Shown one piece after another: positions 7,371 through 43,420 of a stretch of DNA of 43,420 nt. Location: the sequence record OZ035819.1. One strand, 5' to 3'. The notes under the pieces are model-generated. The model saw only the letters and a program-made list of their open reading frames with translations, was not told the DNA's origin and did not search any database. How positions within the stretch are numbered: position 1 is the stretch's first letter; every line of letters starts with the position of its first letter. A program made the position numbers and the translations under genes. This DNA comes from Kagunavirus LM02P1.

Positions 7371-7395
7371 GGGAGGGACTTCGGTCCCTCTTTTC
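7371..7395 (+). terminator. intrinsic terminator after capsid gene
   Basis: Hairpin GAGGGAC-ttcg-GTCCCTC followed by TTTT. Confidence 0.65.
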
Positions 7396-7414
7396 ATTTA
7401 CTAAGAGGTAAATT

Positions 7415-7714
7415 ATGGCTAAGACCGGAAAAGGCTTACCGCGTAGTCTCCAGAATGTCGACTTCGGCGACTTTGACATCCCAGTAACGCCGGCTACTAC
7501 CAGCGTAGTTGGCGGGGTTAAAAAGTCAGCTACTGTAGCCGCCCCCGCGGCCATTACTGCTGGTGAAGGAGCGCAGTCTGCTGATGCCCCGACTAAGACC
7601 GAGTTCGATGCTCTTGTAGCGGAGTACAACAAACTTCGAACTGATGTAACCGCGCTGCGCACTACCGTAGCAAATCTGTTGACTGCGCTTAAAAACGCAG
7701 GAACTGTAAGCTAA
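7415..7714 (+). CDS. hypothetical structural protein (99 aa)
   Basis: RBS AAGAGG upstream; A/T/S-rich with C-terminal amphipathic helix; position between capsid and connector genes. Confidence 0.4.
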   Translation: MAKTGKGLPRSLQNVDFGDFDIPVTPATTSVVGGVKKSATVAAPAAITAGEGAQSADAPTKTEFDALVAEYNKLRTDVTALRTTVANLLTALKNAGTVS

Positions 7715-7726
7715 AGGAGCTTAAAA

Positions 7727-8077
7727 ATGGTTGATGTAATCAAACGTCGTATTACCGGTGTTTCTGACGATTCTCCTGCCGATGGTCAGGTTGAAATCGA
7801 CATGGCGAATATCTCGCCAGCGTCTTTTTCTACCGCACTGAACGCCACAACGGCAGTTACGGCAGGGCAGACTATGACTCTTACCGTAGTGGTAACTGGC
7901 GGTATGGAGCCCTATTCCTACCAGTGGTACAAGAACAACAATGCCATCGCCGGGGCTACCGCGGCTACCTACGCTAAAGCGTCAACCACTACCGCCGATT
8001 CTGGTACGTATAAAGTGGTTGTTCACGATGTATATGGTAATATTATCTCCAGCAGCACCGTAGCAACTGTATCTTAA
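7727..8077 (+). CDS. Ig-like domain protein (possible decoration protein)
   Basis: 116 aa; Ig-like signature YSYQWYKNNNAI...SGTYKVVVHDVYGN. Confidence 0.45.
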   Translation: MVDVIKRRITGVSDDSPADGQVEIDMANISPASFSTALNATTAVTAGQTMTLTVVVTGGMEPYSYQWYKNNNAIAGATAATYAKASTTTADSGTYKVVVHDVYGNIISSSTVATVS

Positions 8078-8113
8078 TACAACGGCCCTTCGGGGCCGTA
8101 ATAAGGAAAGGTC

Positions 8114-8293
8114 ATGGCAGATAATTATGTAATCCGCGAAAAGTACACCCACGTTGATGTTGTTGACGGTCAGGTGATGCCTGTTCGCGGTGTGGTAGAA
8201 GCGGATGAACTGGTTGCGACTCAACCGGACAACGAAGAAGCGCACAACAACGGCGGTGGTACTAAGCGTCGCCGCCGTAAGTCAGAGGAATAG
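8114..8293 (+). CDS. small hypothetical protein (59 aa, basic C-terminus KRRRRK)
   Basis: ATG at 8114 with RBS AGGAAAGG; not in ORF track (below length cutoff); coordinates checked codon by codon. Confidence 0.3.
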   Translation: MADNYVIREKYTHVDVVDGQVMPVRGVVEADELVATQPDNEEAHNNGGGTKRRRRKSEE

Positions 8294-8296
8294 TAC

Positions 8297-8449
8297 ATGA
8301 ATATCGTGCGCCGCTTGCTCTGTACCCACAAATACCGAACGGTAAGAGTCGCATATGGTGACGAGATAATTGGTAGAAATTACAAGCGATATTGCCAAGA
8401 GTGCACAAAATGCGGCGCAATCAGATACGTGGGTGGTGATAAATGTTAA
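8297..8449 (+). CDS. small Cys-rich protein (50 aa; CxH...CxxCxxC)
   Basis: ATG at 8297 with RBS GAGGAA; stop overlaps ATG of next gene (ATGTTAA). Confidence 0.3.
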   Translation: MNIVRRLLCTHKYRTVRVAYGDEIIGRNYKRYCQECTKCGAIRYVGGDKC

Positions 8450-8952
8450 TTGTAGAAACAGGTCAAATTGTAGATGGGGCCGATTCGTACATCTCGCTAG
8501 CTGACGCCCGCGCGTTAGCGGCTAATTATGGCCTGGAGTTGCCGGAAGACGATACCGCCGCCGAAGTAGCCTTGCGCAACGGTGCTACTTATGTAGGGCT
8601 TGCAGAACCGCAGATGTGCGGTCGTCGAGTATCCGCAGAGCAGTCTCTTGCGTACCCCCGTACCGGCATTACGTTAAATGGGTTCCCTGTAGCGAACAAT
8701 GTCATTCCGAAGCAGGTAATTCTTGCGCAGGTAATCGCCGCCGTTACGTATGGCGCAGGCACCGAAGTGCGCGCCAACTCAGACGGTCGTTCCGTGCAGA
8801 CGGAGCGTGTAGAGGGTGCAGTAACGGTGACATACTTCAACAACGGCAACAGTGGTGCTACGACCTCGATCACCGCTGCGGACGACGCTTTACGCCCGCT
8901 ACTGTGTGGCGGTCTTAATAATGGTTTCTCGTTTAATGTGTACCGGGGTTAA
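8443..8952 (+). CDS. structural protein, head-tail connector region (function unassigned)
   Basis: 169-aa ORF in the connector block between capsid and tail genes. Confidence 0.4.
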   Translation: MLIVETGQIVDGADSYISLADARALAANYGLELPEDDTAAEVALRNGATYVGLAEPQMCGRRVSAEQSLAYPRTGITLNGFPVANNVIPKQVILAQVIAAVTYGAGTEVRANSDGRSVQTERVEGAVTVTYFNNGNSGATTSITAADDALRPLLCGGLNNGFSFNVYRG

Positions 8953-8954
8953 AA

Positions 8955-9569
8955 ATGGCTAAGACTAAAACAGAGATATTTACGCTAATCGGTTCAGAGC
9001 TACCCGACAACACAACCGGGCTTATCACTCCAGCGAAGTTACGCACGGTACTAACACAGATGGCAGACTCACCTATTTACGCCACTCCAGGCGTTAAAGA
9101 GGTTGAAGTTCTGCGCGCTGCGTCGACCGTAACACAAGCGCCCACCGCAGTAGATACAGCATTGCAGTTAACTTTCGGCTCCGCCCAGGGAAGCGCATCT
9201 GACCCGGTAATGATTAATGCTGCTGGGCTGGTTACGTTCAACACTGCGGGTAACTACGCCGTTCGAATCAAGTTACAGGCTGGTCGTACAGGGGCCAGCG
9301 GCACGTCTATCCTGCTATCGCGCATCCTCGTCAACGGCGCTCAGTACGGCTCGCCCGCCGCCACTAAACTGGTAAGCGCCGACATGACAATCCCGATTGA
9401 GTCTCGCGTCGTTATTAACCCGACCGCAGGCCAGACGTTTGCCGTTCAGATTATGCGGGACAGCGCCGGGAGTGACTTCGGCGGTGTATACCCACAAGCG
9501 GCTACTGTAGCCTCATGGGGTACCGCCCCGTCAGCACTACTGGTTATCTCGAGACTGGAGGCAGCCTGA
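8955..9569 (+). CDS. structural protein (204 aa, function unassigned)
   Basis: Position in connector block; RBS upstream; no diagnostic motif recognised. Confidence 0.4.
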   Translation: MAKTKTEIFTLIGSELPDNTTGLITPAKLRTVLTQMADSPIYATPGVKEVEVLRAASTVTQAPTAVDTALQLTFGSAQGSASDPVMINAAGLVTFNTAGNYAVRIKLQAGRTGASGTSILLSRILVNGAQYGSPAATKLVSADMTIPIESRVVINPTAGQTFAVQIMRDSAGSDFGGVYPQAATVASWGTAPSALLVISRLEAA

Positions 9570-9928
9570 TGGGCACCGCTTTCAGTAGACGTATGCAAGG
9601 CGTGGGCACACGCCTGCTAACCAAATTCGGTAGCACGGTATCTCTGGTTCGCGCTGGATCGAAAGTGTGGGATGAAGTTCTCGGTGAGTACATCTGGTCC
9701 GCAGACGAAGTGTTGCCGTTGAAGGCCGTTCCGGTCCCTGTTAACGCAGGACTGGTAAACGGTACGACGATTCAGGCGGGCGACATGATTGTTAAAGCCG
9801 ATTGCAGTGTCGTTCCTAAGATGGAAGACAAGGTGCAATTCGGCGGCGAGCAATGGTCTGTCGTAGCCATTGAGAAGAAGATGGTTAACGATGATGTCGT
9901 GGCCTACTTTATTCAGGTGAGAAAATGA
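9569..9928 (+). CDS. head-tail joining/adaptor protein (putative)
   Basis: ATG at 9569 preceded by GGAGG and overlapping upstream stop by 1 nt; ~119 aa; position. Confidence 0.4.
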   Translation: MGTAFSRRMQGVGTRLLTKFGSTVSLVRAGSKVWDEVLGEYIWSADEVLPLKAVPVPVNAGLVNGTTIQAGDMIVKADCSVVPKMEDKVQFGGEQWSVVAIEKKMVNDDVVAYFIQVRK

Positions 9929-10323
9929 GTTTCGCGCTTGATGTCTCTAAGTTCGTGGAAAAGGCGAAGAAGAATACCGAGAAGGTGATGCGTCAGGTGT
10001 CTATCAAGCTGTTTTCCGCTATCATAAAGGCGAGTCCGGTAGATACAGGCCGCTTTCGTATGAACTGGATGGTATCTGGCGGCACTCCTGCTTTCGGGGT
10101 TACAGATGCTACGGATAAATCAGGAAACGCCGCAATCGGAAACGCTACAAGTTTCGTACTGAAAGCAGCAGACTGGCACGAGTTCACGCTGACAAATAAT
10201 CTGCCGTATGCGCAACGGTTGGAGTACGGCCATTGGTCGAAACAGGCCCCACAAGGCATGGTCAGGATAAATGTGTCTCGCTTCCAGCAACTCATTAACG
10301 AAGAAGCCAACAAGGTGAAATGA
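9925..10323 (+). CDS. HK97 gp10-family head-tail connector/tail completion protein
   Basis: 132 aa; family-like motifs SPVDTGRFRMNW and NNLPYAQRLEYGHWSKQAPQGMV. Confidence 0.6.
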   Translation: MSFALDVSKFVEKAKKNTEKVMRQVSIKLFSAIIKASPVDTGRFRMNWMVSGGTPAFGVTDATDKSGNAAIGNATSFVLKAADWHEFTLTNNLPYAQRLEYGHWSKQAPQGMVRINVSRFQQLINEEANKVK

Positions 10324-10736
10324 TGGGCTACTTTGAGGACTTAACCAAAGCGTTCGATGTGCCGCTGGTAGCCTTCGGAACCACCAACGGCATCAAGGTC
10401 GCGCTTGAGAACATTGACGCGCCGACGTCAACCAATACGCCGTATCTGGCGAGTTACATGTTGCTGGCGGATACCGAGCAGGCGGATTTGTTCTTCACGG
10501 AACAACGCGCCGGTGTTTATCAGGTAGACATTAACTACGCATCGGTGAAAGGTAGCGCGCCAATCAATAAAATGGCAGACTTACTTAACACGGCGTTTAA
10601 AGCAGGTAAGTCATTTTCACGTAACGACATCTGCGCCGAGGTTCAATCGGTTAGCCTGGGGCCGCTGATTGTAGAAAACGGATGGGCCAAAAGACCATTG
10701 TCAATTAACTTTATTGCATTCACCAAGAGGCTGTGA
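10320..10736 (+). CDS. tail completion/terminator protein (putative)
   Basis: 138-aa ORF between gp10-like gene and major tail gene; ATGA overlap. Confidence 0.4.
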   Translation: MMGYFEDLTKAFDVPLVAFGTTNGIKVALENIDAPTSTNTPYLASYMLLADTEQADLFFTEQRAGVYQVDINYASVKGSAPINKMADLLNTAFKAGKSFSRNDICAEVQSVSLGPLIVENGWAKRPLSINFIAFTKRL

Positions 10737-11905
10737 ATATGGCTACAACTCCTTTTAAGGGCGCGACTACCGCGCAATTCTATGTGGCGGAAGTCACCCC
10801 GGGCGTAACACCGACTAACCCGGTATGGTCGCCGTTGCGTAACACAGGTGGCGTTCCTGCGATCACCCGCGACACGCTGACCTCCAACGAACTGGACGGC
10901 AGCCGTGAAACTACATCCATCCGCACCGGTAACAAACAGGTTAGCGGAGAATACGCCATCGAGCTTAGCTCGAAAAGCCAGGACGACTGGCTGGCGGGTG
11001 CTTTAGGCTCTACGTGGCAATCTGGTGTTTCCCTGTCCAGTCTGTCGATTACGGTCGCACCGGCGGGCAAGACGTTCACCCGTGCTGATGGCAGCTTTAT
11101 TACTGACGGCGTTGAAGTGGGCGACCTGATCGCGTTTACCGACTTGACGGGCGACAACGCAAAACCGTTTATCGTTACTGCGGTAGAGGCACTGGTAGTT
11201 ACCGGTGCGGGTATTCAACACACTCTGACCACCGAGACCGCTACTACCGCGGCTAAGACCGGCGACAAACTGGAAACTGGTAACGCGTGTAAGACGTTCT
11301 CTATCCTCACCTGGTACAAAGGCCAGTGCGGTGGGGCCGACGCGTACACACTGACCAAAGGTGTGGAAGTTTCTGGTTTCACTGTCGAGCAGGCTGTTAA
11401 CGCGATGGTAACAGGTAGCTTCCCGTTCATCGGACGTAGTCAGGAGATTCTCACCGAGCCGCCATCTGGTTCTGACTTCTCCTCTGTTACGTTTGGTGAT
11501 GAGCCGTTCTCCTCAGTTGACGTTTCTGTGTTCGATGGCTCTACGCCGTTGCGTTGCGATAGCCTTACCATCACCAACGACAACAGCGCGTCCGCACAGT
11601 TCGAACTCGGCAACACTAACGTTGCGTTTGTGGAACGTAGCCGCGCAGCTAACACCTTCTCCATCTCCGGTAAGCTGTATGACATGGCGATGATTCAGAA
11701 GTTTATCAACGAACAGCAGGTAGAGATTAACTCTATTCTGGCCGGGGTAAACGGTGCTATGTCTTTCAGCCTGAAACGTGCGGAACTTACGGCGGTTACG
11801 CCAGAGATTGGTGGGCCTGAGTCAATTACTCAGTCCATTGAAGGCCAGGCTACCGGTAACCAGTACCAGTCATCTATTGTTATTCAGCGTATCACCTACG
11901 CATAA
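10733..11905 (+). CDS. major tail protein (putative)
   Basis: 390-aa ORF, last structural gene before the chaperone/tape-measure block; followed by terminator. Confidence 0.5.
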   Translation: MNMATTPFKGATTAQFYVAEVTPGVTPTNPVWSPLRNTGGVPAITRDTLTSNELDGSRETTSIRTGNKQVSGEYAIELSSKSQDDWLAGALGSTWQSGVSLSSLSITVAPAGKTFTRADGSFITDGVEVGDLIAFTDLTGDNAKPFIVTAVEALVVTGAGIQHTLTTETATTAAKTGDKLETGNACKTFSILTWYKGQCGGADAYTLTKGVEVSGFTVEQAVNAMVTGSFPFIGRSQEILTEPPSGSDFSSVTFGDEPFSSVDVSVFDGSTPLRCDSLTITNDNSASAQFELGNTNVAFVERSRAANTFSISGKLYDMAMIQKFINEQQVEINSILAGVNGAMSFSLKRAELTAVTPEIGGPESITQSIEGQATGNQYQSSIVIQRITYA

Positions 11906-11909
11906 AACT

Positions 11910-11935
11910 AAGGCCCCTTCCGGGGCCTTTTTCTT
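11910..11935. terminator. bidirectional intrinsic terminator
   Basis: Hairpin AGGCCCC-ttcc-GGGGCCT followed by TTTTCTT; same hairpin family recurs at 4337, 22745, 25394 and 28778. Confidence 0.65.
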
Positions 11936-12107
11936 ATTCCTTCAATTGCATAGGGTAGAAGTTAACGAGTTCTCCTTTATCCCGAAGCTGTGAACATTCA
12001 TCTAACGCGTCTTCCTGGCTACTTACGGCATAGATATCATCCCACTCGTCCCATTCTTTGTCGTATACACGGATTACATATATTGTTTTCATTATAGTCT
12101 TACTCAT
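11934..12107 (-). CDS. small acidic protein (57 aa)
   Basis: ATG at 12107 with AGGAG RBS; D/E-rich (EWDEWDD...EDALDE); last gene of antisense island. Confidence 0.4.
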   Translation of the reverse strand: MSKTIMKTIYVIRVYDKEWDEWDDIYAVSSQEDALDECSQLRDKGELVNFYPMQLKE

Positions 12108-12330
12108 CAATATTACTCCTGTACTCCCGTAACTTCTCCAGACTTTCAATTGCTTCTGCCAAGTCTGTTCCGGTGTCCTTGTGACCCCGCAAGCCCATAC
12201 ACAGCAGTTTCTTTAAAGCATGCTGTAACGCCGGGTCGCGGATATCGAAGGCGCGCAGCACATCATAAACGTCTACTGTCATAGTGCTGCCGTGAGTGTT
12301 TGTCATTGTGCGGTTGTATTTATTTGTCAC
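12100..12330 (-). CDS. small hypothetical protein (76 aa from GTG; internal ATGs possible)
   Basis: Minus-strand ORF with overlapping start/stop coupling to neighbours. Confidence 0.4.
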   Translation of the reverse strand: MTNKYNRTMTNTHGSTMTVDVYDVLRAFDIRDPALQHALKKLLCMGLRGHKDTGTDLAEAIESLEKLREYRSNIDE

Positions 12331-12520
12331 TGTTAACTCTCTTAAATCTGGCTATGCCTGACTCGTTAATGTTGCCTATTTCAAAGAAGCTGCGATATTT
12401 AGGCGAATACATTTTTACATCGCCATTCTCTAGGGTGACCCCTTCATATACAGCACCTACTTCGAATCCATTTTTCTCCGCGTACGGACTAACCTCGGTA
12501 CATTCATACATGTCTTTCAT
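12320..12520 (-). CDS. small hypothetical protein (66 aa)
   Basis: ATG at 12520 overlaps the stop of 12517..13647 (ATGA coupling). Confidence 0.45.
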   Translation of the reverse strand: MKDMYECTEVSPYAEKNGFEVGAVYEGVTLENGDVKMYSPKYRSFFEIGNINESGIARFKRVNSDK

Positions 12521-13647
12521 CCCAGCATCTCCGGTGAAATAGTTAAACGTGCGACCTCGCCATATTCGGCGCTATAAGTAATTACATTTGCACTGCGGCC
12601 TGACATCCATCCGCCGCGGGAGGCGTAGGCGTCTTTAGCCGCTAAGGTGCGGTGTTGCTCAACAACCATGTTACGGCTTTCTACAATCTTCTGATGGTGC
12701 AGGTGGCCCACGTGGGCGTAGCTATAGGCACTCTCACCGAACGCTTTGCGGAACTTGGCAATCATAACCGGTTCGATAGCGTCGAAGCGTGCTTTATGTC
12801 CGTGATGAAAGAACAGCGTAGTTTTGCCGTGTTGTACCATCTTGTAAACATCCGGCGACGTATCGACGAACACACGCGGCTCGTTGTCGTACAGCGTACT
12901 GAACATCTCGGCTAACCAAATCATACCCGATTCGTCGTGGTTCCCTTGCACGATAAGCAGTCGGACGTTTTTATGTTTAACCAGTGCCATATCAACAACA
13001 CGGCGAACCATACGAATCATGTAGCGTACAAGTTTCTGATAGCGTGTGTCCGCATCAAGAACATGACCACTCGCTGGCGTAACTGCGTCCAGACTATCGA
13101 AGTGCGCAAGGTCGCCGAGCAGGTTAATAACTCCTGTTCCCGCGTCCGGTGCTTTCTGAAACGCCGCGTCGAACCATCGGGAGAACAGGTCTTCAGCAAT
13201 CTTCATATCCCAGTCGTCGCCGCTTTCATCGGCCCAGGCCAGCATACCGAGATGGAAATCAGATACCGTGTAAAGATTAAGTAGCTTGTCGTCGCGTTTG
13301 GCTCGAGTCGCTTTAACAGGCGCAACCGGCGTAATCTCTGACTTCATACCTTCGATTACGGCTTTCATCAACTCGACCTGACGTTCGGCGTCGGTGTCAG
13401 TCTTAACCCATTGCAGTTTGGTGTTGCCGAACTCATCCACCAGTGACGACGTCCCCTTAATCTTGTAGCCGTCCGGCACAAGGTGACTAACGTCGCGCCC
13501 GTGGCCTACGCCTTTCTTTGCCAGCTTCGCTTTACGGATACGAATAACGCGGTCTGAGATGCCGTATTTACGGGCGATGTCTACATTCTTCATCCCGGCG
13601 TTCAATTCTTCCTGTAACTGCTCGTCGGTTATTTTCTTCTGGGCCAT
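12517..13647 (-). CDS. HTH domain fused to calcineurin-like metallophosphoesterase (SbcD/Mre11-like or phosphodiesterase-like)
   Basis: 376 aa; N-terminal HTH NVDIARKYGISDRVIRIRKAKL; full metallophosphatase motif set SDFHLG, GDLAHFD, GNHDE, HHGH, GHLHH; RBS GAGGAAG. Confidence 0.7.
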   Translation of the reverse strand: MAQKKITDEQLQEELNAGMKNVDIARKYGISDRVIRIRKAKLAKKGVGHGRDVSHLVPDGYKIKGTSSLVDEFGNTKLQWVKTDTDAERQVELMKAVIEGMKSEITPVAPVKATRAKRDDKLLNLYTVSDFHLGMLAWADESGDDWDMKIAEDLFSRWFDAAFQKAPDAGTGVINLLGDLAHFDSLDAVTPASGHVLDADTRYQKLVRYMIRMVRRVVDMALVKHKNVRLLIVQGNHDESGMIWLAEMFSTLYDNEPRVFVDTSPDVYKMVQHGKTTLFFHHGHKARFDAIEPVMIAKFRKAFGESAYSYAHVGHLHHQKIVESRNMVVEQHRTLAAKDAYASRGGWMSGRSANVITYSAEYGEVARLTISPEMLG

Positions 13648-13685
13648 GCTTACTTCCTCGTGTTTAGGATTTGTCCTATACTAGC

Positions 13686-13892
13686 TCACTTCTCTTTGAC
13701 ATTCGAGTTGCACGCCCAGATTAAAATAAATACCCACGGCAGCAGAACCCAGCCAAGAAACAGATTAGCCATGAATATCGCTAATTTCGCTTTATGGTCG
13801 CGGAAATATGCAACCAGAAACGGCGCGAAATAAGCGAGCAGTGCAAACAGAATTAAGGAAACTGGTAAACTTGACATTTTAAACCCCTTCAT
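13686..13892 (-). CDS. small 2-TM membrane protein, superinfection-immunity (Imm)-like
   Basis: 68 aa; two hydrophobic helices around YFAPFLVAYFRDHKAKLAIFMANLFLGWVLLPWVFILIWA, matching the Imm-type signature as I recall it; first gene after promoter. Confidence 0.5.
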   Translation of the reverse strand: MKGFKMSSLPVSLILFALLAYFAPFLVAYFRDHKAKLAIFMANLFLGWVLLPWVFILIWACNSNVKEK

Positions 13893-13907
13893 TGTTGGTG
13901 TAAGTGA

Positions 13908-13936
13908 ATAGTACCCTATTATATTGGGGTGCGCAA
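13908..13936 (-). promoter_or_regulatory. sigma70-type promoter (TTGCGC-N17-TACTAT) for the antisense island
   Basis: Spacer identical to promoter at 4676-4704; sits 16 nt upstream of the ATG at 13892. Confidence 0.55.
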
Positions 13937-14043
13937 GTAATGTGATAGAATAATTTTGCGCCTAGTGTCGCACACGAAAAGCGGGTGGTTCCCGTCTGGC
14001 GCGTCAACCTTAACCTGTAACCTCTTAACCAAAGGATTAAAGA

Positions 14044-14460
14044 ATGAAACTTTCCGATTTTTATTACGAAGCTGAAGCTGAAAAGGGTGCACGTATGCCG
14101 ATACCATTAAAAGACGGTACCGATTCCGGGGAATGGCTTAATGTTGTTTCTCCTGAGGCAGACGTTGCCGTTAAGGCTATGCGCGCGTTCACCCTTGCAT
14201 ACCGGGCAGTGTTAGGGAAATTAAAACCGCTTCGTGATAAGTGCGAAGAGATGAAAGATTTCTCTGAATACAACCTGAAGATGGAAGACGCGGCGACGGA
14301 CCTTAACCGCCAGTTAGCACTTGAACTGGTTAACGGTTGGAGTCTCGACGATGAATTTAATAAAGAGAACCTGAATACTCTTTTCTCACAATATAAACGC
14401 CTCGCTGAACACGTTGTTGTTTTCCACAACGAACAGCTTCACCAATTGCAGGAAAAGTAG
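14044..14460 (+). CDS. tail assembly chaperone (G-like, putative)
   Basis: 138-aa acidic ORF immediately upstream of tape measure gene; RBS AAAGGA. Confidence 0.5.
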   Translation: MKLSDFYYEAEAEKGARMPIPLKDGTDSGEWLNVVSPEADVAVKAMRAFTLAYRAVLGKLKPLRDKCEEMKDFSEYNLKMEDAATDLNRQLALELVNGWSLDDEFNKENLNTLFSQYKRLAEHVVVFHNEQLHQLQEK

Positions 14461-14465
14461 ACGCG

Positions 14466-14825
14466 TTGCTCCAGTTTGCCCGTTGGAACTTCATAACCCG
14501 CCACAAACGGCAGGAGTTTGACAGTATTGCCGACGGGCATAAAGCCGCGCTAATTGCTATGGGGGTTATGCAAGATGCGCCGGAAGCAACGCAGGACACC
14601 GGGCCAGAATGCCCCCATGAGCTATTAACCACCTTCGAGAAGTACAGGGAAATCAAATTCACCCGCCGAGTTGACGACGATGGCATCAAGATGTACCCGC
14701 GCGAACAGTTAAGATGGTCAGATTTAGTGGCGTACAGTACCGTTTCAGGCCAGAATATAGACATGTTTGAATCTGACATCATCATGAGCTTAGACGCTAT
14801 TTTCGAGGGTAGAAACGATGGCTGA
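14466..14825 (+). CDS. second tail assembly chaperone ORF (T-like, putative)
   Basis: 119-aa ORF, TTG start without good RBS, -1 frame relative to upstream ORF and open from 14409; overlaps tape measure start. Confidence 0.35.
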   Translation: MLQFARWNFITRHKRQEFDSIADGHKAALIAMGVMQDAPEATQDTGPECPHELLTTFEKYREIKFTRRVDDDGIKMYPREQLRWSDLVAYSTVSGQNIDMFESDIIMSLDAIFEGRNDG

Positions 14826-17154
14826 TGTAGCTAGTTTAGTTGTAAAAGTATCGGAGCAAGGCGCGAAAGCTACATCGGACCGTCTTGATAATCTCTCCAA
14901 GTCGGCAAAGGTAGCCGGAGCTGCGGTAGCGGGCCTCGCTTCCATCGTCGCCGCTACCGCGTACAAGGCCGCACAGGAACTGGTAGACTCCCAACGGCAA
15001 CTGGACAAGATGTCCGCCAGCCTGAAAACACTAACCGGAAGCACGCAGGGTGCAAGACAGGCATTAAGCATCCTGCAAGACTTCGCGCGAGACACTCCGT
15101 ATGGCCTTGAACAGGCGGTAGAGGGATTCCGTAAACTGGTGGCTCTCGGCCTTACCCCCTCAGAAGAAGCGTTGCGATCCTATGGCAACACTGCCGCTGC
15201 TATGGGCAAAGACCTTAATCAGATGATTGAGGCCGTTGCGGACGCCAGTACATTTGAATTTGAGCGCCTTAAAGAATTCGGCATCAAGGCCAAGCAAAAC
15301 AAAGACGATGTTGAATTTACCTTCCAGGGCACCACTACGGTAGTTAAGAAGAGCGCTGCCGACATCGAGCAATACCTGCTCAACATTGGTAACGTAAACT
15401 TCGCGGGGGCTATGGCGGACCAGGCCAACACACTTAACGGGGCCATCGCCAGTGCCAGCGATTCCTGGTCACAGTTAAAAATGACACTGGCTACCAGCCT
15501 TGATGTTGGCGCTCTTGCGGAACCCATCCGGTACATCGATGATTTAATCCAGGAACTTAACGCACAGGTAGCATCCGGCGAACTCGCCGCTGAGATGCGT
15601 ATGTGGGGTGACATCGCGTCGGAAGTAGGAAGCGCGATAGAGATGTCGTTCGATGCGGCATTTGGTTTCGTAGGTGACGCGATAAACGGGCTGAATGAAC
15701 TTTGGGATTTTAGCAGTAAAAGCATCACAGACAGCGGCGAACAAACGGCGACAACCATCGCGGAATCAGCTGCCGATGCGCTCGATTTCATCGCAGAAGA
15801 ATTTACCGCGATGGAGCGATTCTTTGAAGATATGGTTAAAGGGGCACAGGACGCTGGCCGGTTGGTGAAAGCTGCCTTCACACCAGGGGAATCTGTAGAC
15901 GTAGCAAAAAACATTAACTTCCAGCTAGGGATGGCACTGGATACTCAGCGCGATGTTGCGGACCTGACCCGTAAAAGTTTCCGCGAACAGGTGGAGGCCC
16001 AGCAAAATATTGTCGCGCTTAAACGCGCAGCATATGACATCGACAAAGAAGCCGCTAAGGAAGAAGGGCTTAGTAAATTTAAGGTAACTGGTACTGGTGG
16101 CGGGTCCGAAGATGATAACGCTAGCGCAAAAGCCGCCAAGAAAGCTGCGGATGCGTTCGAGCGCCAGAAGAAAGCCGCTGAGGATTTCTACTACCAGTCG
16201 ATTCATCTCAATGATGACGTATTCCAGAAAATAGAAGCCAACCAGGAACAGCAGTTAACCAAGCTACAAGAGTTTTACGGCAATCAGCTTCTTAGCGACC
16301 AGCAATACGAGAACGCTAAAACTCAGATTATGCTGGAGGCGGACACCGCACGTCAGGAAGAACTCGCCAAGCGAGAGAAAGAACGACAGGAGAAGAACCA
16401 GAAAGGCGAAGACTTCATGGCTCAGATTATGGGCCAGAACGCCGCTGAGCTTGAGCTTCTGGAGATTCAGGAGCAACAAAAACTTGACGTTGCAGACAAA
16501 TACCGCGAACAGAACCTTATTAACGAGGAGCAGTACCAAGCAGCGGTTAACGCGATAAATGACCAGTACGCATTGAAACGCGCCAACGCGACAGGTAATG
16601 CTTTCGGGATGATGGCGGATAATATTAAGTCGTCTCTCGGCGAAGCGTCTACGGCGTACAAAGCGTTTGCTATCGCCCAGGCCACCATAGCCACATACAC
16701 ATCCGCTATAGAGGCATATAAGTCCGCGTCCGCGATTCCTATTGTCGGCTGGGTGCTCGGCCCGGTGGCTGCTGCCGCAGCCGTAGCAGCGGGTCTGGCG
16801 AACATTGGTAAGATTCGCTCCGCACGTGAACAGGGGGGTAACCTAGCCGCCGGTCAGTTATCTACCATCGCAGAACGAAACAAACCAGAAGTTATCATGC
16901 CAGCAGGCGCATCGCGTGTTCGCACCGCACAGCAAATGAAAGAGATTATGGGCGAGAACGGCAACAAGTCAGGCGGTGACAGCGTTACAATCGTCAACAA
17001 CACCACCGGACGTGTTGATTCCGCCGTTACAGAGCGTGACGACGAAGGGCGGTTACGTGTTATCATCAGCGAAACAGTATCGGCGGCGTTACAAGACAGC
17101 AACAGTGCAATCTCTAAGTCACGCCGTGCTACACGAAACCAGCCGGGGTATTAA
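14818..17154 (+). CDS. tail tape measure protein
   Basis: 778 aa; alpha-helical, A/Q/E-rich; largest gene in the tail block, preceded by chaperone pair. Confidence 0.8.
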   Translation: MADVASLVVKVSEQGAKATSDRLDNLSKSAKVAGAAVAGLASIVAATAYKAAQELVDSQRQLDKMSASLKTLTGSTQGARQALSILQDFARDTPYGLEQAVEGFRKLVALGLTPSEEALRSYGNTAAAMGKDLNQMIEAVADASTFEFERLKEFGIKAKQNKDDVEFTFQGTTTVVKKSAADIEQYLLNIGNVNFAGAMADQANTLNGAIASASDSWSQLKMTLATSLDVGALAEPIRYIDDLIQELNAQVASGELAAEMRMWGDIASEVGSAIEMSFDAAFGFVGDAINGLNELWDFSSKSITDSGEQTATTIAESAADALDFIAEEFTAMERFFEDMVKGAQDAGRLVKAAFTPGESVDVAKNINFQLGMALDTQRDVADLTRKSFREQVEAQQNIVALKRAAYDIDKEAAKEEGLSKFKVTGTGGGSEDDNASAKAAKKAADAFERQKKAAEDFYYQSIHLNDDVFQKIEANQEQQLTKLQEFYGNQLLSDQQYENAKTQIMLEADTARQEELAKREKERQEKNQKGEDFMAQIMGQNAAELELLEIQEQQKLDVADKYREQNLINEEQYQAAVNAINDQYALKRANATGNAFGMMADNIKSSLGEASTAYKAFAIAQATIATYTSAIEAYKSASAIPIVGWVLGPVAAAAAVAAGLANIGKIRSAREQGGNLAAGQLSTIAERNKPEVIMPAGASRVRTAQQMKEIMGENGNKSGGDSVTIVNNTTGRVDSAVTERDDEGRLRVIISETVSAALQDSNSAISKSRRATRNQPGY

Positions 17155-17157
17155 CCA

Positions 17158-17652
17158 ATGAGTGATTTGAGATTCCCTATGTCCCTTCGACCAATAGTGT
17201 CGAAGGGGTACTCCCAAACGCGAGGGAGTAATATCTGGCGTACAGAAGTGCAAGGCGGCGTTCCGCGTCAGGGCCGAGACACATACTTCGAACCGGTGCC
17301 GATTAGCGTTACCCTGGTTGTGTCGTCACTAGGCCGCCAGGCTTTCTATAGCTTTCTGAATAACATAGACGGCGGGGCGTCTTCGTTCATCATGCCTCAC
17401 GATACCGGTTTAGGTATCGAAGACCACCAGGTTCTTATTACGTCTGATATTAGCGATAGCACTGACGATGGTAAGAACTGGGTGATTACGTTCACAGCCA
17501 CCGCGGAGCGGACTGCGATTCAGGAAGACACATGTCTTACTAAGAATCTACCGGATTTGTTTGGTTGTTATGGTGATTGCTTGGGTGGGTTCCTTAAAGC
17601 ATACGGAACCGCGCAGTCAACGTTTCCACGAATTTGGGACCCTATGCAATGA
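17158..17652 (+). CDS. minor tail protein (lambda M-like)
   Basis: 164 aa; KGYSQTRG and FYSFLNNIDGGASSF resemble the lambda gpM pattern; follows tape measure. Confidence 0.5.
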   Translation: MSDLRFPMSLRPIVSKGYSQTRGSNIWRTEVQGGVPRQGRDTYFEPVPISVTLVVSSLGRQAFYSFLNNIDGGASSFIMPHDTGLGIEDHQVLITSDISDSTDDGKNWVITFTATAERTAIQEDTCLTKNLPDLFGCYGDCLGGFLKAYGTAQSTFPRIWDPMQ

Positions 17653-18164
17653 GCCAGGAATCAGTAGAAGCAGCCTATCGCCGTAAACTGGCCTCCAACC
17701 CGGACGGCGAAATTGACTACACGACGCTGGAGATAGTGCATCCGCTTCTTTCGAAGCGGTATTTACTTGTGCGCGGAACTTCTGACCTGACGGCAACGTT
17801 AGAGACCGGAGAAGTAGTTACGTTTGAGGCCACACCAATGGAGGCTAAAGGGGCCGCCAACAATAATGATATGGACCAGCGGGCATCATTCGCACTACCC
17901 GACATCGGCAACCAGTTAGACGATGAGATGGATAGGATACCCCCCGATAATACCGTGTTGCCTAAGTTTATATTCCGCCGTTTTGTTAGTACCGATTTGT
18001 CTTATCCGGCGGATGGGCCTGTTGTGTACGAGTTGCAGTCAATAAACCAGGAAAAGGGGATATTCACCGCTGACGTCGGCGTACCTATGTTGAACCAAAG
18101 GGCCACTGGTGAACTAATGACCCCTTCGATGATCCCATTGTTACGCGGTGTTTTGTCTACATGA
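17634..18164 (+). CDS. minor tail protein
   Basis: 176-aa ORF overlapping upstream gene by 19 nt; position between M-like and K-like genes. Confidence 0.45.
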   Translation: MGPYAMSQESVEAAYRRKLASNPDGEIDYTTLEIVHPLLSKRYLLVRGTSDLTATLETGEVVTFEATPMEAKGAANNNDMDQRASFALPDIGNQLDDEMDRIPPDNTVLPKFIFRRFVSTDLSYPADGPVVYELQSINQEKGIFTADVGVPMLNQRATGELMTPSMIPLLRGVLST

Positions 18165-18526
18165 ACATTAATTCTTATACAGGGTTGCCGTACGATTTTC
18201 GCCGTCGTAATTGCTGGCACCATGTGCGTAACGTCCGTGCGGACGCGGGCCTGGCCACGCCTGAGTTTAACGTCGCATCGCCAACACAGATTAATGATGC
18301 ATTTGAAGAAGGTCATAAAAACGCTAAAGGTCTCGTACGCGTAGAAACCCCGCAAAACTTTGATGCCGTTCTGATGGCAACACGGCACAGAAACCGTGTA
18401 ATCTGGCACGCTGGCATATATTATGATGGTATGGTCAGTCATTGCGAGCTAGCAAGTCGCCAGGTACGGTTAGACCGACTGGAAGACTTGCGCGAAACTT
18501 ATGCGGAGATAGAATTTTGGCGCTGA
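18161..18526 (+). CDS. tail assembly protein K-like (NlpC/P60-type Cys/His fold)
   Basis: 121 aa; candidate catalytic Cys in RRRNCWHHV and downstream His residues (VIWHAGIY, VSHCE); position. Confidence 0.45.
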   Translation: MNINSYTGLPYDFRRRNCWHHVRNVRADAGLATPEFNVASPTQINDAFEEGHKNAKGLVRVETPQNFDAVLMATRHRNRVIWHAGIYYDGMVSHCELASRQVRLDRLEDLRETYAEIEFWR

Positions 18527-21069
18527 TATTACATTACACCCGTAACGAAGACGGTACTTTTGACCGCAAACGGTATAACGTACCCCCGATGGAATACGTC
18601 GTTGCTAACATCCCAGACGGGGTACCTGTGCGTATTTACCGCGGCGAGATTGGTGATGATACAGACGTAACGGAAAACTTCGAAGCGCTGAAAGAAGATG
18701 ACGTTTTCCATATCATCGAGGGCGCTGGCGGCGGCGGTGGTTTTCTGGGTAAACTCCTGGACCCTTTGGGTGTGCTTAAATTTGTTACCAAGTTGATTTC
18801 TCCGTCGCAGAAAACGCCTAAAACGAGTTTAGCGAACCAGCAGGCGGAGTCCCCCAACAACAGCTTGACGGACCGAAACAATAAACCGCGTCCGTATGAA
18901 CGGTCGTATGATATTTGCGGCAGGGTCCAGACTATCCCTAATAACCTCATGACTACGTATAAGGTCTTCAATGACGCAGGTGTGGTAGTTGAATACGGCT
19001 ACTATGACGCCGGTCGCGGGTATCTTGATATTAAAGCCGAAGACATCACCGACGGCGATACTAAAGTACAGGAGATTACAGGAACTTCTGTAGCGGTATA
19101 CGCCCCATTTACGTCCCCTAACAACACAAATACGCCTCAGCTTCTGGTAGGGGATCCTATTAATCAGAATCTATACATAACTATTGCCTCGAACGAGGTA
19201 GATGGGGTCGTTCTTAAAGCGCAGAACGACATCAGGGTTAATCCCAGTGATACCGGGGAGATTTCATTGCAGGGGGCAACTGGTGTCGTCCGCGATAACA
19301 CTGGCGACTCTGCTTTCTCTGAGATTTTATCAGTTGGGGACATAGCTGTTTTTAACCTTATTCTGGTAAAAGACGTGGCTAACGTCAGTGGTAGCTATAC
19401 TGTTACATACGTAGATGACTTTGAGGTAAGAGTAGCCGCCGGAGGGATGTTGTCAGAATGGCAAAAATTGCCATCGGGATTCACTCCTTTAACGCAAGGT
19501 ACCGAAGCATGGATTTCACCATCTAACACCTACGATAAGTCGTTAACGGACTGGACTACTTTAAACCGCCTGGAAATTGAACGCGTAGTAGCCAACATCG
19601 CGGCCGCGAATGGTATGTATAAAGACAACGGTAGTAAATTGCGCACGTCGGTAACTGTCGAGATTCAGTATCAACTCCTTGATGAAACTGGCGTGCCGTA
19701 CGGTGATGTTTACTCAAAACAGGCCGTTATATCAGGTCGTTCTGCGGATTACACAGGTGTTACTATTTACGCCGACTTGCCCGTGCGGTCTAAAGTTAGA
19801 GTGCGCGCCCGCCGTGTTACTAACCTTGACCTCAGTTTCGAGGGGACCGTGGTAGACGAGGTTTCCTACATCAACCTTTATGGGCAGGTACGCGACACTA
19901 CACCGCATTACGGCAACCGTACTACCGTGCACTCCGCACGTAAGCAGACGCCGCGGGCCGCAGAGATTAAGCAGCCGCAACTACGTATGGTTGCCACAGA
20001 GATGGTGTACAAATACCTCGGCAACGGCATATTCGACACGGTTATGACGCCTAATACTCAGGCGATTCAGTCCTTAATCCGTCTTGCCCGCGACCCGGCA
20101 GTAGGTAATCTCAACCTAACAACATCCAATATGGACAAGTTGTTAGCGACTCAGACCGAGATAGAAAACTATTTCGGTAGCGCAGAGGCTGGTCAATTCT
20201 GCTACACTTTTGACGATTATAAAATGACCATGCAGGATATCATCAGCACAATAGCTGATGCTATTTTCTGTACGCCGTATCGTAAAGGGCGGGACATATT
20301 ACTGGATTTCGAGCGCCCTCGTATGGGGCCGGAGATGGTATTCACCCACCGCAGTAAGACAACGGCATCTGAGAAGTGGACTAGGACATTCAACGACGCT
20401 CAGGTATACGATAGTCTTAAGTTCTCCTACATCGACCCAGATACCAACGTAAAAGAGACTATTAGCATTCCAGCCGAAGGTGGTGTTAATACTGAAACGT
20501 ATGACTCCAAAGGTATACGTAACTATCGCCAGGCGTATTGGGCAGCTTATCGACGTTACCAGAAAAACTTGTTGAAGAAAGTCACGGTGTCCTTTACGGC
20601 GACAGAAGAAGGAGTTTTTGTGCTGCCGGGTCGCGCAATAAGCGTCGTTAAAGGTTCGCGCGTAGCGCCTCAAGACGGCTATGTTGTTGCCGTTAATGGT
20701 CTTACCCTGACGTTATCACAGCCTGTCACATTTACTCCGGGTGACGACCACTCTTTAATCCTTAAGAAGCGCGACGGTGGTGTTCAGAGCGTCTCGGTAG
20801 TTCCTGGAAGTCACGAACGGGAAGTAATTATGTTATCCGCGCCGCAGGAGGCGATATACACAGGGAATAGCGCGCTAAAAACTGAGTTTTCATTCGGCAA
20901 CGAAGCAAGGCATAATGCTCAGATGATTCTTGTTTCTACAGTTGACCCAGGAGATGACAGAACAGTTAAGATTACCGGGATTAACTACGAAGCAGATTTC
21001 TATAAATACGACGGCGTCGCACCTTTCGGTAGCGGTTTCTCCGGCGGATTCAGCAACGGTTTTAGTTAA
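18442..21069 (+). CDS. central tail fibre / host specificity protein (lambda J-like) with gpI-like N-terminal region; true start unresolved
   Basis: 875-aa frame; N-terminal ~150 aa resemble lambda gpI (VFHIIEGAGGGGGF); remainder is a large beta-rich tail tip protein. Confidence 0.55.
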   Translation: MRASKSPGTVRPTGRLARNLCGDRILALILHYTRNEDGTFDRKRYNVPPMEYVVANIPDGVPVRIYRGEIGDDTDVTENFEALKEDDVFHIIEGAGGGGGFLGKLLDPLGVLKFVTKLISPSQKTPKTSLANQQAESPNNSLTDRNNKPRPYERSYDICGRVQTIPNNLMTTYKVFNDAGVVVEYGYYDAGRGYLDIKAEDITDGDTKVQEITGTSVAVYAPFTSPNNTNTPQLLVGDPINQNLYITIASNEVDGVVLKAQNDIRVNPSDTGEISLQGATGVVRDNTGDSAFSEILSVGDIAVFNLILVKDVANVSGSYTVTYVDDFEVRVAAGGMLSEWQKLPSGFTPLTQGTEAWISPSNTYDKSLTDWTTLNRLEIERVVANIAAANGMYKDNGSKLRTSVTVEIQYQLLDETGVPYGDVYSKQAVISGRSADYTGVTIYADLPVRSKVRVRARRVTNLDLSFEGTVVDEVSYINLYGQVRDTTPHYGNRTTVHSARKQTPRAAEIKQPQLRMVATEMVYKYLGNGIFDTVMTPNTQAIQSLIRLARDPAVGNLNLTTSNMDKLLATQTEIENYFGSAEAGQFCYTFDDYKMTMQDIISTIADAIFCTPYRKGRDILLDFERPRMGPEMVFTHRSKTTASEKWTRTFNDAQVYDSLKFSYIDPDTNVKETISIPAEGGVNTETYDSKGIRNYRQAYWAAYRRYQKNLLKKVTVSFTATEEGVFVLPGRAISVVKGSRVAPQDGYVVAVNGLTLTLSQPVTFTPGDDHSLILKKRDGGVQSVSVVPGSHEREVIMLSAPQEAIYTGNSALKTEFSFGNEARHNAQMILVSTVDPGDDRTVKITGINYEADFYKYDGVAPFGSGFSGGFSNGFS

Positions 21070-35505: not shown

Positions 35506-35868
35506 CCTATTGACAAAATAAAATGTAGCTGTAAAATCAACGTATCGAAGAGCTTTAGTTCAGAATTACTTAGAAACAATATTCTTAAGTCTCGGGTACT
35601 TAAAGCCCCGCCCTAAAGCGGGGCGCTAAATAGTACTCTTGGTAACGTTAGTATCTAAGTTTCCTCAAAGTAACAGCAAGTGGCAAGAAAGCCCCCGTCT
35701 ATTTAAATTTTACCCTCCTACATAAGCCACTGATAATTAAAAGTTTCTATAGATGCCGTAAGCAAGGTAGAGAGTACTTCACTCCGCTGGGGTGGGCTAA
35801 CGCCCACCCACTGCGTTGCGTACTCTTTTAAGAAACGAAAGAATCACAACGGCAACGTAACTATTCTC

Positions 35869-35897
35869 TTGCACGCCCCAACATAATAGGATACTAT
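35869..35897 (+). promoter_or_regulatory. sigma70-type early promoter TTGCAC-N17-TACTAT
   Basis: Same architecture as 37065-37093, 4676-4704 and 13908-13936; followed by conserved leader TTATCGAAACGAGA. Confidence 0.55.
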
Positions 35898-35931
35898 TCA
35901 CTTATCGAAACGAGACAGAGGAGTGAGGGTT

Positions 35932-37057: not shown

Positions 37058-37064
37058 AATTTAC

Positions 37065-37093
37065 TTGCACACACAGATATAATAGACTACTAT
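37065..37093 (+). promoter_or_regulatory. sigma70-type promoter TTGCAC-N17-TACTAT
   Basis: Same architecture as 35869-35897; followed by leader TTATCGAAACGAGAGGAGAGAGAAG. Confidence 0.55.
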
Positions 37094-37122
37094 TCAGTTA
37101 TCGAAACGAGAGGAGAGAGAAG

Positions 37123-39295: not shown

Positions 39296-39604
39296 TTGGA
39301 TAAATTTACTGAAACTGTGACAGGCTGGCTTCTCGCTGCCGCGCTAGCCGGAGGGGTTATCGGACTACGGCAACATAAGTCCGTTATTTCTGGGCCTATA
39401 GACGGCTTCTGCTTTATTGCAACTGGCTTCACTTGTGCCGTGTTTGGTGCACCTCTCGCGGCTCAATGGTTTGGCATTACGGGCGACCGTGAAATCGCAG
39501 GCCTGGGCTTCATTATCGCTATTCTCTGGATGCCTATCTATTCCCGCCTCTCTGGTATTGTTGCCGGAGAATATATCGCACGTCGAGGAGGCCCAGATGA
39601 ATGA
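39296..39604 (+). CDS. holin
   Basis: 102 aa, three hydrophobic helices, charged C-terminus; immediately upstream of lysozyme. Confidence 0.6.
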   Translation: MDKFTETVTGWLLAAALAGGVIGLRQHKSVISGPIDGFCFIATGFTCAVFGAPLAAQWFGITGDREIAGLGFIIAILWMPIYSRLSGIVAGEYIARRGGPDE

Positions 39605-39869
39605 GTTATTCTGGTTCGGCGGTATGCTGGCAATCGGAGGCGCATCGCTGTTTAATGTATATCATCCCAGCGTTGACGACGGGCTATTTGGCCGGGTGCT
39701 CTATATCCTGACCGCTATTGTCTGCGCCGCCGGGTGTATCCACCTGTTACAGGGCAGCATGTCACCTACGCTGCCTGAGACATTAATCACATTAGTTGCG
39801 CTGCGTCAGATTCGTCATGCGTGGCTGTCATACGGAGGATATAAGCGTGTCTCGAAATATTTCAGATAA
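39597..39869 (+). CDS. small membrane protein (second holin-like / lysis regulator, putative)
   Basis: ATG at 39597 with RBS GGAGG, overlapping holin stop (ATGAATGA); two hydrophobic segments. Confidence 0.45.
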   Translation: MNELFWFGGMLAIGGASLFNVYHPSVDDGLFGRVLYILTAIVCAAGCIHLLQGSMSPTLPETLITLVALRQIRHAWLSYGGYKRVSKYFR

Positions 39870-40335
39870 TGGATTGCATTTTACCGCTGCGTTCGAGGGG
39901 TTCCGCGGAACTGCATATCGCGCTACACCGAACGAGACGTACCTGACTATTGGTTACGGTCATTACGGGCCGGATGTAACGCCAGGCAAGACCATCACCC
40001 CGGGGCAAGGCCTCCTGTTACTAAATCGCGATATGGCGAAGGCCGTAGGCGCGGTTGATGCAGCAGCACACCATTCACTGACACAGGCACAGTTCGACGC
40101 TGTGTGCGACCTGGTCTATAACGCGGGTGCGGGCGTGATTGCCGCTACCACCGGAACCGGTAAGGCGCTGCGCTCCGGTGATGTTGCGACGCTGCGGGCT
40201 AAGCTGGCGCTGTTCATCAACCAGAACGGCAAACCGTTGCTCGGCCTGCGCCGCCGTACAGCCGGACGGCTCGCACTGTTCGACGGTAAACCGTGGCAGG
40301 AGGCTGAGGCTATTGGGCGCGCGGTGAAAGGTTGA
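39847..40335 (+). CDS. endolysin, GH24 phage lysozyme
   Basis: GTG at 39847 after GGAGG; ISDNGLHFTAAFEGFRGTAYRA...YLTIGYGH (catalytic E, TIGxGH) and C-terminal RRRTAGRLALF; frame open from 39796. Confidence 0.75.
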   Translation: MSRNISDNGLHFTAAFEGFRGTAYRATPNETYLTIGYGHYGPDVTPGKTITPGQGLLLLNRDMAKAVGAVDAAAHHSLTQAQFDAVCDLVYNAGAGVIAATTGTGKALRSGDVATLRAKLALFINQNGKPLLGLRRRTAGRLALFDGKPWQEAEAIGRAVKG

Positions 40336-42811: not shown

Positions 42812-42820
42812 CCAATAACA

Positions 42821-42845
42821 AGCCCTCTACGGAGGGCTTTTCTGT
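42821..42845 (+). terminator. intrinsic terminator upstream of the late operon
   Basis: Hairpin AGCCCTC-tacg-GAGGGCT followed by TTTCT. Confidence 0.65.
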
Positions 42846-42937
42846 ACATCCCGCCCAATCCCCTTATATAATCCCTTTAGACGCGTAGGGCGCGTCTGAT
42901 GCGCTCTGATGGTCAGACGCATATGTCAGGGGGTTAT

Positions 42938-43420
42938 ATGAAACTTACACTTAAGCAACCATCACCTGAGGTGGTGCAAGCTGCGCATGAAGAGGCTGTT
43001 AGCGCCAACCGTCGCCGTAAACGACCGCGCGGCAAACAGAGCCTTTATCAATCATCCCGTAATTCCGCGGCATTGTGGAATCCAGATTATTGCGACGAAC
43101 TGATTCGTTTCTTTGACCGCAACTCGTGGGAACTTGTGCCCACGTCCAAGGGTGATGAACGTCCTCTTATTCAGGATAAGCCCCCGTCACTGGCTCGCTT
43201 CGCCTTACACATCGGCGTTACTATCCCGATTATTAAGCTGTGGCTGCGCGAGATTCCCGCATTTGCAGAAGCCTATGAAACCGCTCAGGCGCTGGAAGAG
43301 GCGTATTTCACTGAGACAGGCGCAGCTGGTATCTCGGCTACGTTTGCTGCTGCTAAGTTGGGGTTGAATAAGAAAGAAGAATCAACGGGCGAGGGTTCAG
43401 AACCTATTGAGATTCGATTC
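42938..43420 (+). CDS. terS: terminase small subunit (5' part; ORF continues at 1..30)
   Basis: ATG at 42938 with RBS AGGGGG; no stop to window end; basic N-terminus RRRKRPRGK and HTH-like SLARFALHIGVTIPIIKLWLRE; directly precedes terL across the window junction. Confidence 0.65.
   Translation, partial: MKLTLKQPSPEVVQAAHEEAVSANRRRKRPRGKQSLYQSSRNSAALWNPDYCDELIRFFDRNSWELVPTSKGDERPLIQDKPPSLARFALHIGVTIPIIKLWLREIPAFAEAYETAQALEEAYFTETGAAGISATFAAAKLGLNKKEESTGEGSEPIEIRF

Follow-up and report, generated by a model that had tools for sequence, protein, structure and literature searches.

Long-lived mRNAs of Escherichia coli, such as that of ompA, carry stabiliser hairpins at their 5' termini. In IS10/Tn10, as reportedly described by Davis, Simons and Kleckner in 1985, translation of the transposase is inhibited by fold-back of read-through transcripts. 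In phage T4, the genes e, soc, 49 and I-TevI are preceded by a helix that sequesters the RBS, and the 5' strand of this helix is encoded by DNA that includes the late promoter of the same gene (PMC3014915). In HK022, a sigma-70 transcript at the head of a long operon with terminators opens with putL, which is made up of two neighbouring stem-loops and acts on distant terminators (PMC9378689). The put RNAs are ~70 nt long, with bulged stems and a triplex in stem I, and their read-through in cis requires the beta' zinc-binding domain of RNA polymerase. In phage SPP1, pac overlaps the PL1/PL2 promoters, the RBS and the 5' end of gene 1 (terS); it consists of double-stranded DNA boxes bound by TerS, and the terminase represses its own synthesis (PMC6316719).

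Terminase cuts replicating phage DNA, so that the timing and amount of its synthesis should matter. To our knowledge, the control of late genes has hardly been described for Guernseyvirinae, Dhillonvirus and their relatives, although phages for therapy and biocontrol of E. coli and Salmonella very commonly belong to these groups. Here, we describe the terS leader of Kagunavirus LM02P1, a conserved element that probably controls terminase production. Our main reading, to which we assign a probability of roughly 0.45, is that a terS-terL promoter and this structured leader form a start-site-dependent RBS switch of the T4 gene e type.

The window, i.e. the whole stretch of 43,420 nt that we analysed (OZ035819.1), comprises the complete genome, circularly permuted, of a siphophage of the Kagunavirus type (Guernseyvirinae). 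In the terS region, the closest DNA matches were Kagunavirus and Escherichia phages, with 86-92% identity. TerS matched the PHROG 3064 terminase (E = 1.3e-70), and its gene is split over the ends of the window because the record is cut ~30 nt before terL. The stop codon TAA of terS (28-30) and the ATG of terL (30-32) overlap in TAATG, which suggests that the two genes may be translationally coupled. From ~37.2 kb to 42811, where the ORF upstream of the leader ends, every gene lies on the + strand, including those of a holin, an endolysin, a NinH-like protein and small ORFs. The leader lies at the junction of this lysis and accessory unit with the terS-terL morphogenesis operon of >20 kb, which supports an earlier note on this DNA that had placed it at the head of the late operon. 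Coordinates are given in Table 1.

Several other features of the window were recorded. The lysis cassette (holin, 39296-39604; endolysin, 39796-40335) lies upstream of terS in the same direction, with small ORFs and the NinH-like gene between the two. This gene order resembles the lambdoid arrangement of nin, late promoter, lysis and terminase; no Q-like gene was seen. Two - strand ORFs (4362-4655 and 12517-13647) are inserted in the + strand morphogenesis operon and are flanked by bidirectional terminator-like hairpins (4337-57 and 11910-29). A 53-nt module occurs twice (35863-35915 and 37059-37111; 81% identity) and contains a promoter-like TTGCAC-17-TACTAT, the leader TCAnTTATCGAAACGAGA and the SD GAGGAG. 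Both copies stop ~15 nt short of an ATG (35933 and 37124, respectively), and a 24-nt core of the module has exactly two occurrences versus none expected. Furthermore, a consensus-grade sigma-70 promoter (TTGACA-17-TAAAAT; 35511-35539, + strand) was seen by eye in the control region from which the - strand replication genes and the + strand unit diverge.

Table 1. Features of the terS leader of Kagunavirus LM02P1 and of the adjoining genes, with their positions in the window.
Feature	Position	Strand	Remarks
Intrinsic terminator	42820..42845	+	AAGCCCTC tacg GAGGGCTT, then T-rich tail; 8/8 inverted repeat
-35-like TGTACA	42843..42848, 18 nt 5' of the -10 box	+	TGTACA-18-TATAAT, 10/12 matches in promoter scan
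Putative -10 box TATAAT	42867..42872	+	In read-through RNA, part of the 5' strand of P1
P1	42866-75 with 42930-39	+	Mean pair probability 0.93 in read-through RNA
Predicted transcription start (A)	42879 (+/-1 nt), 7 nt past the -10 box	+	From promoter geometry
HP1	42878..42898; stem 42878-85 / 42891-98, loop UAGGG 42886-90	+	Pair probability 0.96-0.98
HP2	42899..42922; stems 42899-903/42918-22 and 42905-09/42913-17	+	Pair probability 0.93
Alternative helix	42892-99 with 42913-20	+	Present in the genome; neither conserved nor populated
terS SD GGGGG, spacer and AUG	42929-33; 42938-40	+	42930-39 is the 3' strand of P1
terS CDS	42938..43420, continued at the other end of the window up to its stop at 28-30	+	Joined translation of 170 aa
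terL	30-1265	+	Matches Terminase_6N/6C

The MFE of the leader was -38.3 kcal/mol, compared with -25.5 +/- 3.4 kcal/mol for 200 dinucleotide shuffles (z = -3.7), none of which equalled it. Both the MFE and the centroid structure are three-way junctions, in which the hairpins HP1 and HP2 stand side by side, 0-1 nt apart, and are enclosed by the helix P1. When ten clade representatives were folded singly, each gave a three-way junction. In HP1, the pairing of AGACGCG (42879-85) with CGCGTCT (42891-97) that the earlier note had proposed was found in 7 of 7 positions, both by direct reading and with a repeat finder. HP2 reads AUGCG-c-UCUGA ugg UCAGA-CGCAU, with a bulged C at 42904 and the loop UGG at 42910-12.

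P1 was absent from the earlier note and was recovered by the repeat finder as a repeat pair (ATATAATCCC at 42866-75 with GGGGTTATAT at 42930-39). Its 5' strand, the anti-SD AUAUAAUCCC, comprises the TATAAT box and the next four bases, and is extended to 42864-42877 in the MFE structure. Its 3' strand, GGGGUUAUAU, comprises the SD, the spacer and the first two bases of the AUG. The earlier note had located the TATAAT hexamer and the terS RBS correctly. A second copy of the anti-SD, AATCCCCTTA (42857-66), lies in the promoter spacer next to AATCCCTTTA (42870-42879), and in the majority Kaguna leader the upstream anti-SD copy pairs perfectly with AAGGGGAUU at the SD.

According to the earlier note, the 3' arm of HP1 can pair with either of two partners, and these mutually exclusive hairpins would bring about antitermination or translational control. 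The second pairing exists: GCGTCTGA (42892-99) is complementary to TCAGACGC (42913-20) in 8 of 8 positions by direct reading and repeat finder, and this perfect 8-bp helix is intact in the Kaguna clade. Its cause is a direct repeat of TCTGATG (42895-901 and 42905-911; repeat finder), through which the 3' arm of HP1 looks like the 5' arm of HP2. The TCAGACGC arm pairs better locally, inside HP2, with a partner that had been overlooked. The alternative helix had a mean pair probability of 0.0002, both in read-through RNA and in RNA from the predicted +1, and the best structure that contained it was 5.4-5.8 kcal/mol worse than the MFE. Across 20 diverse leaders, 74.7% of its cells were paired and three pairs changed on both sides, which was equalled by 128 of the 500 shuffles. 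Moreover, the helix is broken in all lineages outside the Kagunavirus clade, exactly at the positions that co-vary in HP2. The change from UCUGA/UCAGA in Kaguna to UAUGA/UCAUA in Jersey, L053 and St162, for instance, is compensatory for HP2 and breaks the alternative helix.

Neither HP1 nor HP2 is followed by a U tract, so that neither hairpin is an intrinsic terminator, which argues against attenuation or antitermination through a choice of hairpins. Partner switching is thus extremely improbable. What stands of the structure-based control proposed earlier is translational control of terS, which is plausible, and not the device of competing hairpins; likewise, the pairing in HP1 co-varies strongly, whereas the second pairing does not. 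The word GCGTCTGA was also considered as a dispersed regulator site and rejected: the 8-mer is not enriched genome-wide (34 matches with <=1 mismatch versus 34.7 expected), and the covariance model finds a single copy of the element.

To study the conservation of the leader, we compared 50 IMG/VR loci and 37 metagenome and genome loci, together with five Logan contigs (TerS ~60% identical) and six remote phage records with TerS 30-35% identical, i.e. Dhillonvirus SECphi18, Eiauvirus eiAU-183, Salmonella St162, vB_STM-ZS, SaI_NFG_5579 and Serratia Tsm2. TerS-profile scans of metagenomes and genome contigs returned close relatives almost exclusively, and the diversity in the sample comes from the Logan contigs and the remote TerS hits. 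The double hairpin was present in ~11 lineages (Kaguna-, Jersey-, Dhillon- and Eiauvirus, and others), with TerS identity down to ~30%. Every lineage showed the same layout of a GC-rich terminator hairpin with T tract, TAYAAT, HP1, HP2, SD and AUG, and the distance from the -10 box to the ATG was 65-73 nt across lineages. There is one copy of the element per genome, always directly upstream of terS, including the genomes with TerS 30-35% identical.

In a MAFFT alignment of 16 leaders (A3), 94.6% of the cells were paired and 10 pairs changed on both sides, compared with 24-45% of cells paired in slid controls on the same alignment; none of the 500 shuffles equalled this result, a control that overstates independence because the sequences are related. 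A second alignment of 20 leaders from ~11 lineages (A5), which was fitted to the model and therefore leans towards the structure by construction, had 91.8% of its cells paired and showed changes on both sides in 20 of 28 pairs, which none of the 500 shuffles equalled; the MAFFT-only alignment and the single folds of the ten representatives gave the same verdict. The pairs that changed on both sides comprised 8/8 in HP1, 9/10 in HP2 and 3/10 in P1, i.e. 17 of the 18 pairs of the hairpins, and the percentage of paired cells was 93% in HP1, 95-99% in HP2 and 86-91% in P1. Two of the leaders (L051 and L055) were too divergent for MAFFT. The model R1 missed these two with default filters, and with filters off it gave weak E-values of 0.01-0.26.

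The stems diverge beyond recognition between lineages, and the loops stay. The inner stem of HP2, for example, occurs as UCUGA/UCAGA, UAUGA/UCAUA, GCCGA/UCGGC, GGAGA/UCUCC, UGGA/UCCA and GCAGG/CCUGC. We are highly confident that the conserved leader structure is real. A TerS homologue is present in ~650 deposited phage genomes, and the leader DNA matches 411 of those. Rfam returned no family match, giving sub-threshold chance hits on the upstream terminator only and nothing in eight divergent loci, and we found no paper describing a double-hairpin terS leader; the RNA motif is apparently so far undescribed. One Jerseyvirus-type terS locus (L093) was located on a 19-kb contig of an assembly of Taishania pollutisoli, a member of the Bacteroidota (NZ_JACVEL010000022.1). 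Its TerS is 85% identical and its leader is identical to that of Salmonella phages, and the locus is probably contamination rather than a true host association.

Conserved pairing might serve either RNA or DNA, since covariation could also be imitated by a palindromic operator to which a dimer binds, and the details of the two hairpins bear on this distinction. The non-Watson-Crick pairs on the + strand comprise 34 G.U versus 6 A.C. The bulges of HP2 are one-sided and differ between lineages (c in Kaguna, u/ac in St162, cc/a in L056), with C, U and A freely interchanged as the bulged base. The loop of HP1 is purine-rich in all lineages (UAGGG, CAGGG, CAGAG, AGG or UGA). The loop of HP2 is UGG (CGG once), with an interruption of the stem ~5 bp below it, and GA-UGG-UC is near-invariant. 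Furthermore, the covariance model scored ~100 bits on the + strand and ~18 bits on the - strand. The wobble bias, the one-sided bulges, the conservation of the loops and the strand scores all point to an element that acts as + sense RNA.

These observations also weigh on the reading that the promoter and leader region is, or doubles as, a pac site or a DNA site for TerS or a regulator; the earlier note had likewise mentioned that packaging signals could lie here. The near-complete turnover of both sides of the hairpin pairs while the stem sequences diverge completely, the wobble asymmetry on the + strand and the varied size of the one-sided HP2 bulges, which would break the symmetry of a dimer operator, all speak against a DNA site, and relatives yielded neither termini nor a submolar pac fragment. 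Nevertheless, the relatives are reported as headful packagers, the leader adjoins terS, the element accompanies terS genes of this family even in distantly related phages, and the words AGGG, GATGGTC and TATAAT are kept in nearly all lineages. In LM02P1, the half-site word YGCG(C)TCTGA also occurs in four similar copies, arranged <- -> -> <-, but this word is not kept outside Kaguna. SPP1 provides a precedent for a packaging signal at this place (PMC6316719). We consider a pac or DNA site unlikely; a dual role of the words AGGG and GATGGTC in RNA and DNA is possible, and the terS leader is a place to look for the unmapped pac site. The ends of GenBank records were rejected as evidence for pac or cos, as they are conventions and PhageTerm finds no termini.

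The terminator at 42820..42845 closes the upstream co-directional unit with the holin, the endolysin and the small nin-like ORFs. Covariation was seen in its stem (CTC/GAG to CGC/GCG, among other changes), and every lineage examined had a GC hairpin with T tract at this place. The terminator scan called this hairpin on the - strand only, because the scan tool absorbs two T's into the stem. In all lineages the terminator is directly followed by the TAYAAT box, of which T1, A2, A4, A5 and T6 are invariant. The -35 element of LM02P1 is mediocre (4/6, with an 18-nt spacer). Four lineages have TTGCCT or TTGCCA as the -35 partner, at a distance of 17 nt, LM02P1 and Jersey have TGTACA at 18 nt, and Dhillonvirus has a textbook extended -10, TGTTATAAT, of the form TGnTATAAT. 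The predicted +1 of LM02P1 coincides with the first paired region of HP1, and HP1 starts ~6-11 nt past the -10 box in the other lineages. The single published transcriptome of a Kagunavirus lists neither start sites nor terS. From these sequence patterns, TATAAT is very probably a real -10 box, and a terS promoter is quite likely.

The promoter separates our main reading from one in which the leader is a protein-binding translational operator or a constitutive attenuator. Here, a functional promoter would be absent, all terS mRNA would come from upstream with its RBS locked in P1, and the level of TerS and TerL would be set by a phage or host protein that binds the loops, or by RNase III cutting P1. 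The closed structure is indeed very stable and sequesters both SD and AUG, hairpins that proteins recognise typically have conserved loops and, as here, a bulge 5 bp beneath a small loop, and if terL is coupled to terS, one control point would set both subunits. Yet TAYAAT is invariant even in L051 and L055, where P1 takes another register and the pairing does not need this word; it is accompanied by a -35 element or an extended -10 and always preceded by a terminator. In addition, three lineages have the hairpins but no P1, and no candidate binding protein was identified. Such an operator or attenuator is unlikely.

Under the reading that we prefer, the start site-dependent RBS switch, RNA that leaks past the upstream terminator would carry both strands of P1, and its terS RBS would be closed. 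RNA started at the promoter would begin at the first base of HP1 without the anti-SD strand, and its RBS would be open. The predicted probability that SD and AUG are unpaired was 0.43-0.82 in promoter-started RNA versus 0.16-0.45 in read-through RNA, with the same direction in all ten representatives. The anti-SD changes along with the SD variant of the lineage, as in AAUCCCC/GGGGAUU, AAUCCU/AGGAUU and AAUCUCCU/AGGAGAUU. In a register-free test, the complementarity of the SD to the 30 nt 5' of the predicted start beat at least 97% of the shuffles in 8 of 15 representatives. The others were weak or marginal (L029, L053, L051 and L094) or had no such complementarity (eiAU-183, St162 and Tsm2). 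The upstream terminator appears to be strong, and the RNA that passes it may be too scarce to be of consequence. We give about even odds to the switch being functional.

P1 is not universal and hence cannot explain the conservation of the hairpin core. As far as the compared leaders indicate, the double hairpin is the core that all lineages conserve, to which P1 is often added. The RBS switch does not account for the conserved loops or for the position of the interruption in HP2. Because the loops AGGG and UGG and the interruption are kept, the double hairpin should be more than a spacer. It would stay at the extreme 5' end of the productive mRNA, where it would most likely serve 5'-end protection and/or recognition by a conserved partner; the second hairpin and the conserved loops are unexplained by 5' protection, which suggests such a partner.

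A partner such as RNA polymerase (RNAP) would fit the conservation of the loops across phages of different enterobacterial hosts. In this put-like reading, the double hairpin would be a compact class of RNA, unrelated to put, that binds the host RNAP and acts on it in cis, resulting in read-through of the terminators in the >20-kb operon. If true, this would let virulent enterobacterial siphophages without a known Q- or N-type antiterminator pass terminators. Two abutting stem-loops at the predicted +1 and at the head of a long operon are found here as in putL. Moreover, terminator-like hairpins on the + strand are enriched in the late region (1-20000; 35 versus 20.6 +/- 4.5), with strong intergenic ones at 2770-85, 4337-57, 4980-99, 7371-92 and 11910-29. 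This evidence is positional only, however. Similarity to put was not detected, as the best hit of model R1 in the HK022 genome with filters off scored 13.2 bits (E = 1.3) and Rfam gave nothing. The element is also shorter (~45 nt versus ~70 nt for put), with no sign of a triplex or of multiple bulges. We therefore regard put-like action as quite unlikely. A lambda-type nut boxA (CGCUCUUA-like) was also considered and rejected: CGCUCUGA occurs in the 5' arm of HP2 in Kaguna only, where it is paired and downstream of HP1. Other lineages have GCGCUAUGA, GCCCGCCGA or GAUUGCCGA instead of this boxA-like word.

The leader has consequences for the annotation of terS as well. TerS proteins in the databases (P0001-P0015) are often 181-183 or 194-195 aa long, versus ~170 aa. 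Gene callers start terS at an in-frame ATG or GTG within HP2 (42899-42937 and homologues), and since this frame is not conserved in other lineages, the longer proteins are probably due to mis-called starts. Several GenBank genomes were opened 39 nt upstream of the real ATG because of this mis-called start; record starts 51 nt upstream reflect the convention of the CPT group, 'opened in front of terS'. The in-frame ATG/GTG at 42899 was rejected as the start of a leader peptide or of an N-terminally extended TerS. L052, L053 and L056 do not keep the frame; eiAU, Tsm2, L051 and L055 have no start codon there; and the changes in the 'codons' follow the complementarity of the hairpin and not the amino acids. 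A short ORF from the AUG at 42909-11 to AUGA at the terS start has an early stop in Jersey, is fused in frame in L053 and is absent in L052, and was rejected too. The terS leader motif exposes a systematic annotation error, with terS starts called inside the second hairpin.

Each of the known systems shares part of its design with the leader of LM02P1. Like SPP1, LM02P1 is a headful siphophage with a signal-dense region of terS promoter, leader and start codon; in contrast to SPP1, it conserves intrastrand pairing with wobble pairs on the + strand. The HK022 putL RNA differs in that the LM02P1 element is directly followed by an RBS. Like the ompA stabiliser, it would place a stable stem-loop only a few nucleotides from the 5' terminus, but an ompA-type stabiliser needs neither a second hairpin nor conserved loop sequences, and the LM02P1 leader has both. 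As in IS10/Tn10, outside transcripts would carry an anti-RBS segment and the transcript from the own promoter would not; IS10/Tn10, however, is a mobile element with a simple duplex without internal conserved hairpins, whereas in LM02P1 the arrangement precedes a phage late operon.

The likeness to the T4 e-type leaders extends to the pairing of SD and AUG with an upstream segment in long transcripts, and to a promoter, here predicted, in the DNA of the 5' strand, whose RNA would be without that strand. In LM02P1, the box is of the host sigma-70 type rather than a T4 late promoter, the gene is terS, and the helix encloses two conserved hairpins in a three-way junction instead of forming a simple stem-loop. 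P1 is, moreover, absent in some lineages, and the LM02P1 switch is predicted from sequence and folding. What both leaders would have in common is that a dangerous late function is insulated from upstream transcription.
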